DNA from: Promethearchaeota archaeon
Lineage (GTDB): Archaea > Asgardarchaeota > Lokiarchaeia > Sigyniarchaeales > SOKP01
Direction of reading: 5' to 3'
DNA: 64,000 nt
Assembly: GCA_019057795.1 (NCBI GenBank)
Contig: JAHLWS010000082.1
Location: 96,001 to 160,000, forward strand
This document shows, piece by piece, positions 19,123 through 30,549 of the stretch. Position numbers and translations under genes: made by a program. The notes beneath the pieces were generated by a model. That model was not told where the DNA came from, ran no database searches, and saw nothing but the letters and a program-made list of their open reading frames with translations. The first letter of the stretch is position 1; each line of letters opens with the position of its first letter.

Positions 19123-19329
19123 ATGCCAAAGAAAAAAAGACCAAAGGATTTAATTCCCTATCCAAAAAGTAGGTTTTTACGTGTAAAATGCCTAAATTGT
19201 GGCAATCAGCAAATAATTTTTGGGTGTTCTTCTACAGATGTGGAATGTTTAGTATGCGGAAAACTATTACTTCAATCTACTGGTGGTAAAGCACGAATTC
19301 TAACCAAGATTTTAGAAGTGCTCTCCTAA
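19123..19329 (+). CDS. rps27e: 30S ribosomal protein S27e
   Basis: [22 protein letters not shown]. Confidence 0.96.
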
Positions 19330-19369
19330 CTAACTTTCACCTTATTTGAGTTTTTATCTATTTATTTGA

Positions 19370-19395
19370 TCGTGAAACCACTCTTATTCTATAAA
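19370..19395 (+). repeat. attL candidate TCGTGAA-ACCACTCT-TATTCTATAAA
   Basis: Shares its 10-bp core with attR; outer arm is complementary to the outer arm of attR. Confidence 0.7.
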
Positions 19396-21395: not shown

Positions 21396-22259
21396 ATGTT
21401 AAATGAAAATCAAATAAATAAGATTAGAGAAATGCGGGAAAAAGGCTTAACTATTAAGGAAACGGCAAACGCACTTGAAGTTTCAGAATCAAGCGTTAAA
21501 AAATACACTTCAGAAGACTACGAAAAAGATAACGAACTTGATGAGAAAACGGGAAATTCGTTAACGAAACAATTTGATTTAGAAGAATACGATTTTCAAG
21601 ACGACATAGCTCCGTTGGTTTACAAACTAAAAGACCAAGCAAACGAAATAAATGTTACTCTTCACGATTACCTAACCGATATAAGCAATACCATGAACAA
21701 ATTCCTAAGAATAACAAGTAAACCACAATGGTTTTATTATGTGTTTTGCGAATTAGCCAATAGTTTTTCTCTAATAAACGAACACATAGACGCAACAAAA
21801 TTTATGGAAGCCGTTGATAATTGGTATGAAAGGGAAATAGATATGGAAGAGAGCGAGAAGTTTATTATTGATATTGAAACAAAAGCAGAAAAATTAGTTA
21901 AAAACGCTAAAGAAGAATATAATATTTGGCAAGAAAAAATCGACAATGCCCAAAAAGAATACGAAAAAATAACCTCTCTCCATACTGTTATGATAAATAA
22001 TCTATTAGAGAAACCAAATTTAGAGAAACTACAAAAAACAGAAAAGAAGTTAATAGATGCGGAAAATAGACTAAAAGAATTAGAATTATCAAAATTGATT
22101 TTGATAGAAAAATGTAAAATACTCGAACAATCCGATAAAGATAACAAGATTGCCAAAAAAGAAAATATATTGTTAAAAAAAGCGTTTAAAAAACTTAATA
22201 AACTTTTCCCTCAAGAAATAACCGTTATAATCCAAGAGATTGAAAATGAAATCCAATAA
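21396..22259 (+). CDS. N-terminal HTH + coiled-coil protein (element)
   Basis: MREKGLTIKETANALEVSESSVKKY HTH; long heptad-rich C-terminal half. Confidence 0.7.
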   Translation: MLNENQINKIREMREKGLTIKETANALEVSESSVKKYTSEDYEKDNELDEKTGNSLTKQFDLEEYDFQDDIAPLVYKLKDQANEINVTLHDYLTDISNTMNKFLRITSKPQWFYYVFCELANSFSLINEHIDATKFMEAVDNWYEREIDMEESEKFIIDIETKAEKLVKNAKEEYNIWQEKIDNAQKEYEKITSLHTVMINNLLEKPNLEKLQKTEKKLIDAENRLKELELSKLILIEKCKILEQSDKDNKIAKKENILLKKAFKKLNKLFPQEITVIIQEIENEIQ

Positions 22260-25372: not shown

Positions 25373-25498
25373 ATGTCAATTGAAAAAGAGAATGCAGAAA
25401 ATTCTGAAATTCTTAAATCATTGATTTTAAGTTATGAGAATATGGAATCTAAATTACTTAGTATCAATGAAGAAATTAAAAAATTAGAAGTGGATTAA
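25373..25498 (+). CDS. 41-aa coiled-coil-like peptide (not in ORF track)
   Basis: MSIEKENAENSEILKSLILSYENMESKLLSINEEIKKLEVD; converges on the integrase remnant. Confidence 0.35.
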   Translation: MSIEKENAENSEILKSLILSYENMESKLLSINEEIKKLEVD

Positions 25499-25507
25499 AA
25501 AAAAAGA

Positions 25508-25678
25508 TTATAATTGAATATCTTGATATGGAAACCATTTATCAAATAATTCAATATATTGTTTATAATTCATCTTTACATAGGATTCCACATTAACATC
25601 TTTAACCTTATGATTTAAAAGAATTTTTCGATCTTCTACTGGGCATCCCATTAATTGTCTGAAAGTATTTAATGTTCT
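25508..25678 (-). pseudogene. 3' remnant of a tyrosine integrase (56 codons)
   Basis: RTLNTFRQLMGCPVEDRKILLNHKVKDVNVESYVKMNYKQYIELFDKWFPYQDIQL, 48/56 aa identical to the C-terminus of 28000..28914. Confidence 0.92.
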
Positions 25679-25970
25679 CTTTTAATCTCATCACCTAATA
25701 ACGTGGAATTTTTTTTTGGAATATCAGTAATCTCTTTCTCAATTGGAAATCATCATAAAGATTCTATCCATTATTGAAAAATGCTGTAATATTTAACAAA
25801 TTAGCTTTTAGGAAAAAAGATATTAAATAGAAATATATATTAATTATAGATAAACATTAATCAAAAATTTTTAAAATTAAGAGATTAAAATTACTTTTTA
25901 AAATATCAAATTATATATGTTTTTAAATAATTATATTTAAAAAATCAATAAAATATCATAAAGAATAGAA

Positions 25971-26708
25971 ATGATTGATTATAATGAAGTTTTCGATAAT
26001 CCATTATTAGTAGAAGTAGTTATTGAAGCTAGATTTCCTCTTTTATTAAAGATTCCTAGAGACATTGCAGATTTTCAAGAAGCTATTAGTGAAGAATTTC
26101 CTGAAACAAATATAATTTATGATAAAAAAATATTTTTTGATTCAAAAGAAGGTTCAGAAGAAATTAGTGAAAAAGCATGGGAATTCGTAAATCCTGAAAA
26201 TAAGACAAAATGCCAAGTTTTTAATCATAGATTCTCTCTATTTTCTAATACATATAAATCATGGGAAGGATATGAATCAAAAGAGGGATTTCTTGATATT
26301 TTAAAATTTAGTTTGAATAATTTTATAAAAGTATATGGTATCAAAAAATTCAACCGTTTAGGTTTAAGATATATTAACAAAATTGAATTAGAAGAAAAAA
26401 ATTCTAAGTGGTTTAAGAAATATTTCATTCCTTTATTTAATCACGATAAATATAGGATTGAAGATCTTTCTCAGAATTCAGTGCGTTTAAGAGTAAAAAA
26501 ACCGAATTCAGCAGAATTAACAATAATGAGTGGTTTTTTAAAACAAGATAATAAAGATTATTATATGTTAGATTTTGATGCTTATTCTCTTAATATTTTA
26601 CAAGAAAATCTATATGAAACTCTTGAAAAATTACATGAGACTATATTAAAAGAATTCCATTCACTAATAACAGGAGATTGTAGAAAAAAAATGAGAGGTG
26701 AAATTTAA
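25971..26708 (+). CDS. TIGR04255-like protein
   Basis: PL.VEVVIEARF, RLGLRYINKI, LDFDAY motifs. Confidence 0.75.
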   Translation: MIDYNEVFDNPLLVEVVIEARFPLLLKIPRDIADFQEAISEEFPETNIIYDKKIFFDSKEGSEEISEKAWEFVNPENKTKCQVFNHRFSLFSNTYKSWEGYESKEGFLDILKFSLNNFIKVYGIKKFNRLGLRYINKIELEEKNSKWFKKYFIPLFNHDKYRIEDLSQNSVRLRVKKPNSAELTIMSGFLKQDNKDYYMLDFDAYSLNILQENLYETLEKLHETILKEFHSLITGDCRKKMRGEI

Positions 26709-27343
26709 TTTTAAAGACAATACATACAAGAAGAATAATTAAACCATCTGCCGAGAAGGGAATTACTGGACAAAAAGATATTCCTGAATGGGCTGATGTT
26801 ACTAAACTGTTAAAAAGAAGAGAGACTAAAAGTGAAGCGTGGCATGTTTCTTCATATAAAACTATTGCTTCATTAGGGGATATTAAATCTGCGGGATTTT
26901 CTATAGAGGTTTTCCCTGAAGAGAGTGCTTATGTCAGATTGACTCATATTATTAGACCATCTAAATCTCAAGAATTTGAAGGATCTACTCCTGAATTTGA
27001 GCCTTTTCCAGTTATAGATTTATCAGATACTGAATATGTTTGGATAGACATAGAAGAAGCCGATTTTTTTAATGAAATTGATTTTTTAAATCATCAATTA
27101 TATGAAAAAGAGGAAATTATAAAAGATCTTGAAATTCAAGTCAAAGTATATAAAAATAAATTAAAGAGATATAAAAGAAAAATCCCCAAATTTGAAAAAT
27201 TGAATCGAATAATTAAAATTAAAAATAAAATTATATCTAAGCTTGAGAAAGATATTATTGTTTATAAGGAGAATATAGATCGGTTTACTATAGACTTTTC
27301 CTTACCAGAAGGTTATTATGGTAATGAAGAGTTTAATGAATAA
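26708..27343 (+). CDS. Hypothetical protein (low-complexity N-terminus + coiled coil); probable non-canonical start near 26708
   Basis: Frame open from 26702, GAGGTGA SD at ~26695-26701; ORF-track start 26939 looks internal. Confidence 0.6.
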   Translation: MLKTIHTRRIIKPSAEKGITGQKDIPEWADVTKLLKRRETKSEAWHVSSYKTIASLGDIKSAGFSIEVFPEESAYVRLTHIIRPSKSQEFEGSTPEFEPFPVIDLSDTEYVWIDIEEADFFNEIDFLNHQLYEKEEIIKDLEIQVKVYKNKLKRYKRKIPKFEKLNRIIKIKNKIISKLEKDIIVYKENIDRFTIDFSLPEGYYGNEEFNE

Positions 27344-27357
27344 TAGGCGAAATTTGT

Positions 27358-27996
27358 ATGGATTTAATAAAAAGTACTCCATTTCCAGATATATTTTGTG
27401 AACCAGAAAAGAAGAATCATATTTTTCAAGGAGATATAATAAAATATACAAATTATATAAATACAAAACAAGAAAATCTAGGATTTATAATTTTATCAAA
27501 TTCCTGTGATTTAGAAAATTTAAAAAATAAAACAATAATATCTATTGCCCCAATATTTCCTTTTAATTTTGTTTTTGACGATATGCTCAGTGAAGCGTTT
27601 AATAGAACTAAAAAGAAAGTGGAAACATTAAAATCTTCTAAGGAAGTAATAGAACACTTTACAAATTTAGTTAGTCAATATATTTATGATGAATCAAATT
27701 ATAAGAAAAAGTATACATTTCTTATTTCTCCTTTATCTAAATTCGAAAATAATCCAACAATTGCTCATATAGAACATATAACCTCAATAAAAATAACAGA
27801 ATTGAAAATAATTCTTCAAAATAGAATAATATCAATTAAACCACCATGGAGAGAAAAATTGGCATTCAAAACAGGATATATATATAATAGAATCGCAACA
27901 TATACCCCTAAATTCAAAGATATAAAGAAATGGTGGATTTCTACATATAATGAAATTTTTGAAATTAAGAAAAAGGAATTGAAAAAATTCATATAA
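27358..27996 (+). CDS. Hypothetical protein with PemK/MazF-like signature (putative toxin)
   Basis: FQGDII...ILSNSCDL...ISIAPI pattern. Confidence 0.5.
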   Translation: MDLIKSTPFPDIFCEPEKKNHIFQGDIIKYTNYINTKQENLGFIILSNSCDLENLKNKTIISIAPIFPFNFVFDDMLSEAFNRTKKKVETLKSSKEVIEHFTNLVSQYIYDESNYKKKYTFLISPLSKFENNPTIAHIEHITSIKITELKIILQNRIISIKPPWREKLAFKTGYIYNRIATYTPKFKDIKKWWISTYNEIFEIKKKELKKFI

Positions 27997-27999
27997 AAT

Positions 28000-28914
28000 T
28001 CAGAGGTTTATATCTTGGTATGGATACCACCTATCATATAACTCTATAAATTGCTTATAATTCAACTTCACATAAGATTCTACATTTACATCTTTAACCT
28101 TATGGTTTAGCAGTATTTTTCGGTCTTCATTTGGACAACCCATTAATTTTCTGAAAGTATTTAATGTTCTCCTGAATGTATGACATGTAATTGTTTTCTT
28201 TATTTCTAAATCATCTAAAACATGCTTTAAATAAGCATTAAACTGTCTTTCTGTATATCTCTTAGATTGAGTTGATAAAAATAACGCTTTTGTTTTAACA
28301 TTTTTTAATTTGCGTTCTTTAAGATAAAGTTTTAGAAATTTAGCTAACTCTTTAGAAATATAATATACCTTTTTTCCTGTTTTACCCATTGTTTTAATAA
28401 ATCTCTTTTCCAAATTTATTTCATTGTAATCAATATTTATTAATTCTCCTTTTCGCATTCCTGTTTCAGAAAAAATCCTAAATATGAGATAATATTTGAA
28501 ATGTCGTAATTTTAAATAATCTAAAATATCTTTTACTTCCTCTTTAGTCATTACAATATCTTTATTTGTTTCAGGTTCTTTATGATTAATCCCATTCCAA
28601 TTAATTGAATGTTTAGGTATAATGACAATAAATTTATATTTTCTATAATATTCCATGCAAAAGTTAAGAAAGCTAATTATTAATGTCCATTTTGTCTTTT
28701 TTGTTCCTAAGCTGATTGTTTCAAGATGTTTTAAATAATCAAAATAATCTATAAGAATATCTGTATTAATATCAAAGATATGTCCTTTATGACCAAAATA
28801 TTTAGGATTAAAAAAATAGTTTAATGATGATTTTCTTGTTTTAACTGATTGATTAGAATGTCTATAATGATTAAGATATTTGCTTATTATTGTATTATTC
28901 ATAGGTTTATTCAT
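28000..28914 (-). CDS. Tyrosine recombinase/integrase
   Basis: ETGMRKGEL (R), GKTG (K), HTFRR (HxxR), LLNH, ESY catalytic Tyr. Confidence 0.95.
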   Translation of the reverse strand: MNKPMNNTIISKYLNHYRHSNQSVKTRKSSLNYFFNPKYFGHKGHIFDINTDILIDYFDYLKHLETISLGTKKTKWTLIISFLNFCMEYYRKYKFIVIIPKHSINWNGINHKEPETNKDIVMTKEEVKDILDYLKLRHFKYYLIFRIFSETGMRKGELINIDYNEINLEKRFIKTMGKTGKKVYYISKELAKFLKLYLKERKLKNVKTKALFLSTQSKRYTERQFNAYLKHVLDDLEIKKTITCHTFRRTLNTFRKLMGCPNEDRKILLNHKVKDVNVESYVKLNYKQFIELYDRWYPYQDINL

Positions 28915-29411
28915 TTCAGTTTATACCTCCCTCTTGGTGTCAGTTCAATTAATCCTTCTTCATGTAATTCAGTAATTATAGAAAATACAATTTCTTTATC
29001 CAAATTAGTTTTTTCAATTATTTCTTTTGGGTTTAATGTATTATGAGCTTTCAATAAATTAATTATAGTATCTTTTGCTGTAGAATCTGCTTTTATTGAG
29101 AATTTCTTAATCAATCTTAAAGTATTATTCATTTCGTTAATCTTATTTGTTCTTTCTAAGGTTAATTCTTGTAATTCCATAATCTTTTTAGTATTCTGAG
29201 TTAATTGTTCTAATATTACAGGATTAAACTGAAAATTTGATGTAGTTTGAAATAATTCGGGGTTCTCTAATTTCCGAACATAATCAAAGATAGCTATGCG
29301 ACAAAAATCAGACATACTAGTATGCTTTTCTTTAGCTAAATCGTTGATTTTATCTTTCTCATCCTGACTCAGAGAAATCTGAATAAAAATTCTTTTATTT
29401 CCATTTGACAT
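28911..29411 (-). CDS. RHH + C-terminal wHTH protein coupled to the integrase (regulator/directionality factor candidate)
   Basis: IQISLSQDEK...SMSDFCR RHH; LNPKEIIEKTNL..GRYKL wHTH; 4-bp overlap with int. Confidence 0.75.
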   Translation of the reverse strand: MSNGNKRIFIQISLSQDEKDKINDLAKEKHTSMSDFCRIAIFDYVRKLENPELFQTTSNFQFNPVILEQLTQNTKKIMELQELTLERTNKINEMNNTLRLIKKFSIKADSTAKDTIINLLKAHNTLNPKEIIEKTNLDKEIVFSIITELHEEGLIELTPRGRYKLK

Positions 29412-29459
29412 TTTTTTTAAACTCTAAAATTAATTTTTATTATAATAATAGCAACACAC

Positions 29460-29505
29460 TCATATAAATGTTATGAAAATTTATATGATAACCACTCTTT
29501 CACGA
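29460..29505 (+). repeat. attR candidate TTTATATGATA-ACCACTCT-TTCACGA with adjacent 10-bp IR (TCATATAAAT/ATTTATATGA)
   Basis: Read directly; the IR overlaps the TATA-like box of the RHH-int operon. Confidence 0.7.
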
Positions 29506-29535
29506 ACTTAGATCATATATTAAAAATATTTTAGT

Positions 29536-30549
29536 TTAGTCGAAATACGTCTTTACAGCGTGTACAAAAGATTTTATGTTTTTTATAGGTGTGTCTCCAG
29601 TAATTTCACATCCTGGTGCGACTATAAAGCGTGGATCACCTCTACTTGCATTTAAAGCTGCGTGAACTGCTACTTCAATTTCTTTTGGTGTGCCAGATGG
29701 AAGTAATTTAACATGATCAATATTTCCAGCCACACCTATCTTATGATCAAACAATTCTTGGGTTTTAGTAATGTCAACATATGGTCCAATGCTCAATGTA
29801 TTTAACCTATCAATTTTTTTAAGATAAGGCGCAACAACATTTAGATGTGACGTTATCTTTCCACACATATGAAGGATATTATAGTCATACACATTAAGGA
29901 TCTCAGGTAGATAATCTATACTGAATTCTTTTACATGAGTAGGTCTCAACATCTGAAGATCATGTTCACAGATTACAAAGATTGTTGCTCCAGCTTCTTT
30001 CAAAACAGAAATGTACTCCTTAATTATTTCAATAGTTCGTTTGACTATTTGGTGTACAAAATTAGGGTTTTTTACTAGCCTTCTTATCAAAGCTTTATAA
30101 GGCATTAGCTGTAAGCTAAAAGTTATTGGTCCCGTCATGAAAGCTGCTACAGGGACATTAGCTTCCTCGGCAAGAATTCGCGTGCCTTCAATCAAAACTC
30201 TTGTACTTTCTGTTAACATGAAATCTGGTATTTCTAATCTTTCTAAATCACTCTCTGATTCAATCACATATTTGGTAATCCAGGGGTTTTTATTAGGCGG
30301 ATAAGTAACTTCTGCCCCACAAGCTTCGGCAACCGGCCAGCTTGGTTCAACCTGAATTGTTGTTATATCATAACCATACAAATCCAATGCTTTTAGGTGA
30401 GCATTTGCAGCTTTTTTCGCATCCTTATACATACTATTATAAGTCAGCCTATTTATGATCCCCGCATGATCCCCGATTTGGGGAAATACTGGTGGTCGAT
30501 CAACTGAACGACCTTTCAAAGCAGCAAAAATACGATCAAATGAATCCAT
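29536..30549 (-). CDS. UroD/MtaA-family methylcobalamin-dependent methyltransferase-like protein
   Basis: DRPPV, AEACGA, ILHMCG, AGNID, APGCEI. Confidence 0.85.
   Translation of the reverse strand: MDSFDRIFAALKGRSVDRPPVFPQIGDHAGIINRLTYNSMYKDAKKAANAHLKALDLYGYDITTIQVEPSWPVAEACGAEVTYPPNKNPWITKYVIESESDLERLEIPDFMLTESTRVLIEGTRILAEEANVPVAAFMTGPITFSLQLMPYKALIRRLVKNPNFVHQIVKRTIEIIKEYISVLKEAGATIFVICEHDLQMLRPTHVKEFSIDYLPEILNVYDYNILHMCGKITSHLNVVAPYLKKIDRLNTLSIGPYVDITKTQELFDHKIGVAGNIDHVKLLPSGTPKEIEVAVHAALNASRGDPRFIVAPGCEITGDTPIKNIKSFVHAVKTYFD

Follow-up and report, generated by a model that had tools for sequence, protein, structure and literature searches.

The stretch of DNA analysed here, 64,000 nt of a Promethearchaeota archaeon contig (JAHLWS010000082.1) and hereafter called the window, carries an integrated mobile element in which a tyrosine integrase gene (int) is followed by a three-gene cargo cassette and then by a second, stranded int 3' end. 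Unlabelled coordinates are positions in the window; L-numbers denote contigs or loci of relatives, G-numbers genomes, and q-numbers codon positions of the integrase. Read along the minus strand, the 5' part of int leads into a 33-nt core and the int 3' end, followed by three genes convergent on int, a second copy of the core, and the second int 3' end (Table 1). An earlier note on this DNA had described exactly this order, and every factual element of that description proved correct.

The intact integrase matches PF00589 (Phage_integrase) over residues 121-284 with 79.5 bits against a cutoff of 27.1, and its catalytic residues H245, R248, H271, and Y281 are invariant across 10 aligned homologues. 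Its partner gene encodes a ribbon-helix-helix (RHH) protein with a winged helix-turn-helix (wHTH) domain. The stranded tail retains H271 and Y281 and does not include H245 and R248; both tails thus hold the catalytic His and Tyr, as had been noted from the letters. Each tail also abuts a convergent gene, again as described before: cargoC and int end 3 nt apart, and a 41-aa open reading frame (ORF) ends 9 nt from the stop of the stranded tail. This 41-aa gene is the usual neighbour of int in relatives with 70-92% integrase identity.

The two tails, copy 1 (C1) at the end of int and copy 2 (C2) stranded beyond the cassette, form a direct repeat (28171-28010 and 25679-25518) with a start-to-start spacing of 2,492 bp. 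The homology begins abruptly at GAGAACATT, immediately 3' of the HTFR codons. Recomputation returned the same spacing and the same 32/33 match in the core, including 22 exact nt at the edge, that had been claimed. Beyond the core, the copies agree at 100 of 124 nt (80.6%, previously put at about 78%), and the tail peptides at 48 of 57 residues (previously 48 of 56). The identity between C1 and C2 falls from 5' to 3', being 32/33 at first, then about 82%, and then about 71%. A 21-nt word of the core occurs twice in the window, with 0.02 occurrences expected. Among 345 similarly diverged tail pairs of the family, just one had no more than one mismatch in these 33 nt, the mean being 8; this and the other statistics given below were computed on related, non-independent sequences. 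The family-wide nucleotide column conservation of the core is 0.785 and equals that of the rest of the tail (0.75-0.80), so the core is not specially conserved at the nucleotide level. Family conservation does not account for the 32/33 match between the two copies.

Table 1. Features of the element and of its duplicated integrase 3' end, in window coordinates
Feature	Position	Strand	Basis or remark
att core AACCACTCTT, distal element end	19376..19385	+	junction CGTGAAA-CCACTC-TTATTCTAT
41-aa ORF adjoining stranded tail	25373..25498	+	usual int neighbour; matches 3' of int in L181, L182, L150, L086, L089, L091
C2, stranded int tail, 57 codons	25508..25679	-	frame open, stops precede it, ends at 25508
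Inferred crossover interval in C2	25557..25583	-	L181 informative sites
88-nt spacer, cassette left end to stranded tail	25680..25767	.	no significant match to att region or any locus
Conserved cassette unit, 2.2 kb	25768..28036	+	blastn boundaries and flank alignments; about 82% nt identity with at least five other metagenome contexts
cargoA, TIGR04255 family protein	25971..26708	+	NCBIfam TIGR04255, 102.9 bits vs cutoff 30, profile positions 2-251 of 252
cargoB	26702..27343	+	frame open from cargoA stop; first ATG/GTG/TTG at 26939
cargoC, 212 aa, no known family, convergent on int	27358..27996	+	homologues of 60-92% identity, always within the three-gene unit
Intact tyrosine integrase, 304 aa	28000..28914	-	PF00589, E 3e-22; H245, R248, H271, Y281 invariant in relatives
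C1, 3' end of intact int, core to stop	28000..28171	-	
Inferred crossover interval in C1	28049..28075	-	codons about 281-289, from Tyr codon; L181 informative sites
RHH-wHTH gene, integrase partner	28911..29411	-	Pfam RHH_1/NikA-like and MarR/HTH_24 matches; upstream of int in relatives too
att core AACCACTCTT, RHH-proximal end	29490..29499	+	junction TGATAA-CCACTC-TTTCACG; empty-site comparison with G111 (L055) and G130 (L054)

A cassette-free allele in a related host

The closest integrase in a large protein collection (P0013, 92% amino acid identity) is encoded on L181, a 2.1-kb metagenome contig of the Joint Genome Institute. Positions 11-1531 of L181 align with window 29529-28010 at 94.5% identity, across host flank, attachment (att) site, RHH gene, and int. 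Judged by its sequence, L181 carries this very element in a related host, integrated at the same place. Two further segments of it, 1370-1747 and 1845-1926, align with window 25679-25302 and 25273-25192 at 90-93%. In L181, the 5' part of int runs straight into the flank of the stranded tail without the cassette. The empty allele that the earlier note had called for, with the int 5' part fused to the tail ending at 25508 and its flank, thus exists in this 94%-identical relative.

A site was taken as informative where C1 and C2 differ and L181 has the nucleotide of one or the other. L181 agrees with C1 at all 14 such sites up to tail nt 98 and with C2 at 14 of 15 from nt 104 onwards (exact test on the table 14, 0; 1, 14: about 2e-7 by our own arithmetic). 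Therefore, one crossover relates the filled and the empty allele, and the segment that the empty allele shares with the flanking repeats is a chimera of them with a single clean switch, as is characteristic of a Campbell-type insertion. By this switch, the probable crossover coincides with the Tyr281 codon or closely follows it, on the 3' side of the core at a distance of about 100 nt, and not at the HxxR codons where it had been assumed to lie. The difference between the integrases of the two alleles is confined to the last 16-24 codons, and the catalytic residues are not exchanged. The swap of the whole catalytic C-terminus proposed earlier would therefore shrink to about these codons as donor-derived, with HxxR, the His of the LNH motif, and the Tyr all resident. 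The sequence comparison supports the view of the 2,492-bp block as a discrete indel with an int tail at either end. Whichever the direction of the event, recombination between the tails moves the cassette into or out of the int gene and leaves the enzyme intact.

The attachment site and cassette copies elsewhere

As an exact 10-mer, AACCACTCTT occurs in the window only at the two places listed in Table 1. The orthologues of the flanking host genes are adjacent in two genomes of the same genus, with a gap of 0.74 kb in G111 and 1.8 kb in G130 compared with 10.85 kb here. The empty target in both genomes reads CGTGAAA-CCACTC-TTTCACG, a palindrome with a 6-nt centre. Because the stretch is bounded by the two copies of AACCACTCTT and the sister genomes have empty sites, the whole 10.1 kb is one integrated element; the region of about 19-29.5 kb is low in G+C. 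The canonical sites are CGTGAAA-N6-TTTCACG for attB and TGATAA-N6-TTATTC for attP, and the upstream regions of the RHH genes of relatives follow the same plan (CGTGAAA-N6-TTATTC/TTATCA) with varying 6-nt centres. The RHH gene starts 78 nt downstream of the att site, and integration leaves int in one piece. The integrase of the element is an ordinary, non-partitioning tyrosine integrase with its att upstream of the RHH-wHTH partner gene. The earlier note had rightly set it apart from SSV-type integration: a split integrase of that type was ruled out by the empty-site comparison, which places att outside int. A tRNA target was also ruled out, as the window contains no tRNA; some relatives sit beside a tRNA (L051, L039). 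The core inside int has neither att-type arms nor the CCACTC centre, and the real att has nothing in common with it, so the idea that the core is the site of the integrase is not supported.

The cassette occurs in other contexts, represented by L165-, L169-, L174-, L176/177-, and L178-type contigs, and the flanks of these copies are unrelated. The left end of the cassette is fixed, and the right end always enters the last int codons on the other strand. The int 3' remnant beside it covers about 4 codons in L165, 11 in L169, 4 in L174, 22 in L176/177, and 6 in L178. Therefore, units of a truncated tail and the cassette exist, and the linkage of the cassette to an int 3' end is long-standing, which bears out the earlier view of cargo and int tail as a unit. 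These copies, with their 4-22 int codons, lack the 33-nt core that they had been expected to carry, so the core can have had no role in where they were placed. On no other contig was a full int seen next to the cassette, a combination found in this element only; sequencing run SRR30888638 contains the same arrangement. The proteins encoded around the cassette on these contigs matched no families. Among 161 genomes of the class, cargoC gave just three partial matches, and viral contigs searched for the donor tail and cargoC gave none.

The spacer between the cassette and the stranded tail ends in ATTCTAT (25761-25767), the same 7 nt that open the distal terminus of the whole element. A blastn-short search with the spacer (25680-25767) returned only poly-T noise. 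A Smith-Waterman alignment of 25680-25970 against the reconstructed attP, made for an internal att or RHH-upstream remnant, reached a score attained by 30% of shuffles, and a site resembling AACCACTCTT with at most one mismatch was not found between 25508 and 25970. Motif resemblances picked by eye (CTCTTTCTC, CCACG-TTATTA, and TTCCACG) were judged non-significant and dropped.

Origin of the filled allele

Homologues of the integrase are found in Promethearchaeota (Loki-type) metagenome-assembled genomes and in sediment metagenomes. The RHH-int module alone is conserved across these relatives, and the bodies of their elements differ. Complete modules stand in tandem on four contigs (L034, L035, L107, and L111). 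In L026, an intact int is followed, after a gap of 28 nt from its stop, by a 5'-truncated int starting from about q215, and L121 has an intact int with a second one truncated at q236 or earlier, 0.5 kb downstream. The orphan or truncated int genes begin at q27, 34, 46, 78, 102, 112, 120, 180, 185, 200, 221, 230, 234, 250, 254, and 261, and L018 holds an N-terminal fragment ending at q241. The starts are in excess at q234-q262 but scattered over about 80 nt instead of sharing one codon. A recurrent start of stranded tails at the RTLNTFR codons, as foreseen in the earlier note, was thus not observed, the remnants of relatives starting anywhere from q27 to q262. The int genes of the family are mosaic along their entire length; informative-site tests for mosaicism near the core gave p values of 0.01-0.05, among many tests and in a family that is mosaic throughout.

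The explanation that we favour, with about an even chance of being right, is a homology-guided insertion of the cassette block by a single crossover of the Campbell type. In Campbell-type insertion, a circle that shares a stretch with its target integrates by one reciprocal crossover, duplicating the stretch as reciprocally chimeric direct repeats, and deletion between the repeats restores the empty allele. Here, a 2,492-bp block comprising an int 3' end, the TIGR04255 three-gene cassette, and the 88-nt spacer would have been inserted into an element like the cassette-free relative. The donor may have been a circular DNA in which the cassette adjoined what was left of a related integrase gene after 5' truncation. 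A single reciprocal crossover of this remnant with the resident int 3' end would have placed the cassette directly behind int. With the crossover in the Tyr codon or immediately 3' of it, the last 16-24 int codons would come from the donor, and therefore HxxR, the LNH His, and the Tyr of the intact integrase would stay resident. The stranded copy would be the reciprocal product, with a donor 5' part and a resident 3' part. The highest identity between C1 and C2 lies toward the 5' side, as would be expected of an event guided by homology.

We infer three parts of this explanation, namely insertion over deletion, a circular donor, and host homologous recombination over the integrase as the agent. 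For the direction, the outgroup tails lean toward insertion, their consensus being closer to C1 over the 5' part and to C2 over the 3' part (9:5 versus 3:11, p = 0.054; p = 0.039 for a G119-like clade). The 41-aa gene beside the stranded tail, being the normal int neighbour in relatives, leans the same way, as do the lack of any other contig with a full int beside the cassette and the lack of an internal att remnant. Several points weigh against the favoured explanation. L181 is one short metagenome contig, for which an assembly jump across repeats is possible in principle; at its switch point, no exact block is long enough for such a jump. The polarity is weakly resolved, and the two closest full-length outgroups, L084 and L085, show no switch; therefore, L181 could be a secondary deletion between the repeats. 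Neither a circle nor a donor with a 57-codon remnant was found, the scans of viral contigs being empty. The homology is short (172 nt at about 80%, with a longest exact run of 22 nt) and ill suited to homologous recombination. The family often has tandem arrays and decayed integrases, and accretion followed by deletion is therefore a well-founded alternative origin.

Such accretion and decay is a serious rival, which we consider possible while doubting it. Two elements, E_A (RHH-int-cassette) and E_B (RHH-int-body), would have stood in tandem at the same att; the distal end of E_A, the internal att, and the RHH gene and int 5' part of E_B would then have been deleted, and L181 would have arisen later by homologous deletion between the tails. 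The four contigs with tandem modules and the 5'-truncated int genes beginning at many codons (q27 to q261) are in line with this course, and the second int genes of L026 and L121, with their other breakpoints and spacing, are hard to explain by cassette insertion. The orphan tails of L039 and L159 adjoin att-type arms, and the ATTCTAT at the left cassette boundary repeats the first 7 nt of the distal terminus of the element. In comparisons with full-length relatives, C1 seems to follow the 5' part of int, with L084 and L085 closest for both, and these closest outgroups are without the tail switch. The three steps of integration, decay to a cis-mobilizable element (CIME), and accretion are established for bacterial elements, in the families of integrative and conjugative elements and integrative and mobilizable elements (PMC5704250). 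However, the interval from the cassette to the stranded tail contains neither an internal att core nor a remnant of an RHH-upstream region, and accretion gives no reason for a 32/33 block at the edge of the remnant, as rare as one in 345 family pairs. The outgroup polarity and the conserved linkage of int and the 41-aa gene lean the other way, and a full int stands beside the cassette on no other contig. A cointegrate, formed by homologous crossover between two complete related elements inside their int genes and reduced by a later loss of the second RHH-int 5' module, would account for int being chimeric, for the reciprocal pattern of the tails, and for outer att sites of the canonical kind, and the int genes of the family are visibly mosaic along their length. 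We nevertheless regard it as very unlikely: it requires an extra deletion that ends exactly at the remnant edge, and no trace of the second module was found.

The route proposed in the earlier note, in which the integrase acts on the 33-bp core at the HxxR codons and int-less circles of core, replacement tail, and cargo are loaded site-specifically and recurrently in an integron-like manner, appears most improbable. The core is indeed 32/33 identical and sits exactly at the homology edge, the well-defined remnant starts (the window, L159, L038, L039, and L040) are enriched at q234-q262, and the fragment of L018 ends at q241. The tail of L039, fused to a CGTGAAA att-type arm, hints at occasional integrase action near this place. 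Nevertheless, the empty allele puts the crossover on the 3' side of the core, at a distance of about 100 nt. The core has neither attB/attP arms nor the CCACTC overlap and is conserved (0.785) as the rest of the tail is (0.75-0.80). The breakpoints of relatives spread over about 80 nt and beyond, and the cassette copies elsewhere are without the core. Because the crossover is off the core, att lies elsewhere, the core is not specially conserved, remnant starts are scattered, and cassettes lack the core, the integrase-catalysed, integron-like route is unsupported. What stands of that proposal is the geometry, an integrase-less block inserted inside int; integrase-catalysed stacking at HxxR does not. 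A broader idea, in which the int 3' end serves as a portable homology arm and int-less cargo blocks hop repeatedly into related int genes and out again as circles, giving recurrent loading across the family, we consider unlikely.

By analogy, the closest known processes would be Campbell-type insertion, the replacement of a gene 3' end as at icd, and accretion with CIME formation. The pattern of the window and L181 matches the chimeric direct repeats and the empty allele of a Campbell-type insertion. Unlike in the general case, the shared stretch here is the element's own int 3' end, very short and diverged, and the recombinase remains intact with what would be a foreign C-terminal end. The e14 element and phage 21 insert at the 3' end of icd, a protein gene of E. 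coli, and bring a replacement end. There as here, the gene 5' part is followed by a replacement 3' end, inserted DNA, and the stranded original 3' end, with mostly synonymous differences and a functional target. However, e14 and phage 21 use their own integrase and a defined att in the target, whereas the present block has no recombinase and an integrase gene as its target, and the data support no site-specific core. In CIME accretion, related elements stack at one att, one of them decays, and the integrase that survives moves the composite. Tandems and decayed integrases are likewise frequent in this archaeal family, but here the parts are not separated by an internal att, and there is a cassette-free allele whose intragenic crossover is clean. 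The partitioning, "suicidal" archaeal integrases of SSV type (PMC7253208) have attP inside int and are split by integration. They are archaeal tyrosine integrases with gene fragments left in the chromosome, which they share with the present case; here, in contrast, the RHH gene has att upstream of it, and int stays intact on integration. As in an integron, cargo is added beside a tyrosine recombinase gene. In contrast to an integron, there is no attI/attC-like or conserved site used by the integrase, the core being conserved no more than by coding constraint, and the three-gene cassette has its own 5' region and is inserted inside the recombinase coding sequence.

The mobile elements of Asgard archaea have hardly been characterised, and the interest of this locus comes mainly from that setting together with the clean filled/empty pair. 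The element is fully delimited, with att sites and with empty sites in sister genomes, and the pair of alleles has cargo in or out through the 3' end of int itself without inactivation of the enzyme. If the route were recurrent, it would explain the free body-swapping of small elements, the integrase remnants littering their neighbourhoods, and the spread of the TIGR04255 module. If the int 3' end were a portable arm, every hop would bring cargo to a place directly behind int and swap the C-terminal end of the recombinase. A single homologous event would be instructive but ordinary mosaic evolution.

Cargo genes and observations on related loci

Only cargoA matched a family, TIGR04255; cargoB and cargoC had no Pfam or NCBIfam matches, and none of the three matched the PADLOC defence models. 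Protein similarity of cargoB, as detected by tblastn, starts right at the cargoA stop in all relatives, which suggests a non-canonical start or coupled translation. The 41-aa ORF lies on the strand opposite to int in the window, L181, and L159, and on the same strand as int in L182 (1792-1903), L150 (541-648), L086, L089, and L091, and may be a small invertible or re-inserted segment. Another protein of the element (21396-22259) has a resolvase-type HTH_7 N-terminus followed by a long coiled-coil-like remainder, and no recombinase domain. On another contig of the same genome, a second member of the integrase family with 51% amino acid identity (G000:C22:51504-52394, L045) has no extra tail nearby.

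In the tandem of L111 (103-1344), the second int begins 34 nt past the stop of the first, and the two modules of L034 are 90% identical, 12 kb apart, and attached to unrelated bodies. The orphan tail of L039 (10350-10446) follows CGTGAAA at a distance of 1 nt and a tRNA 3' end at 55 nt. That of L159 (7840-8000) starts about 25 nt after TTTCACG, with a complete CGTGAAA-CCTTGA-TTTCACG site and a second TTTCACG arm just upstream. The sequences of these two loci suggest that deletions of RHH-int modules are often anchored at the att site.

A comparison of L093 (1-170) with window 19320-19385 and 29440-29550 identified a related element, with an integrase of about 77% amino acid identity, at the same palindromic attB of a related host in reverse orientation. 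In the RHH-sense reading, the 6-nt centre is CCACTC in L093 and GAGTGG, its inverted form, in the window. This pair of sequences suggests that the direction of integration is set by the asymmetric centre alone. At the same locus in the sister genome G130 (L054:2115-3233), a different insert of 1.1 kb with one ORF lies right beside the intact attB palindrome.

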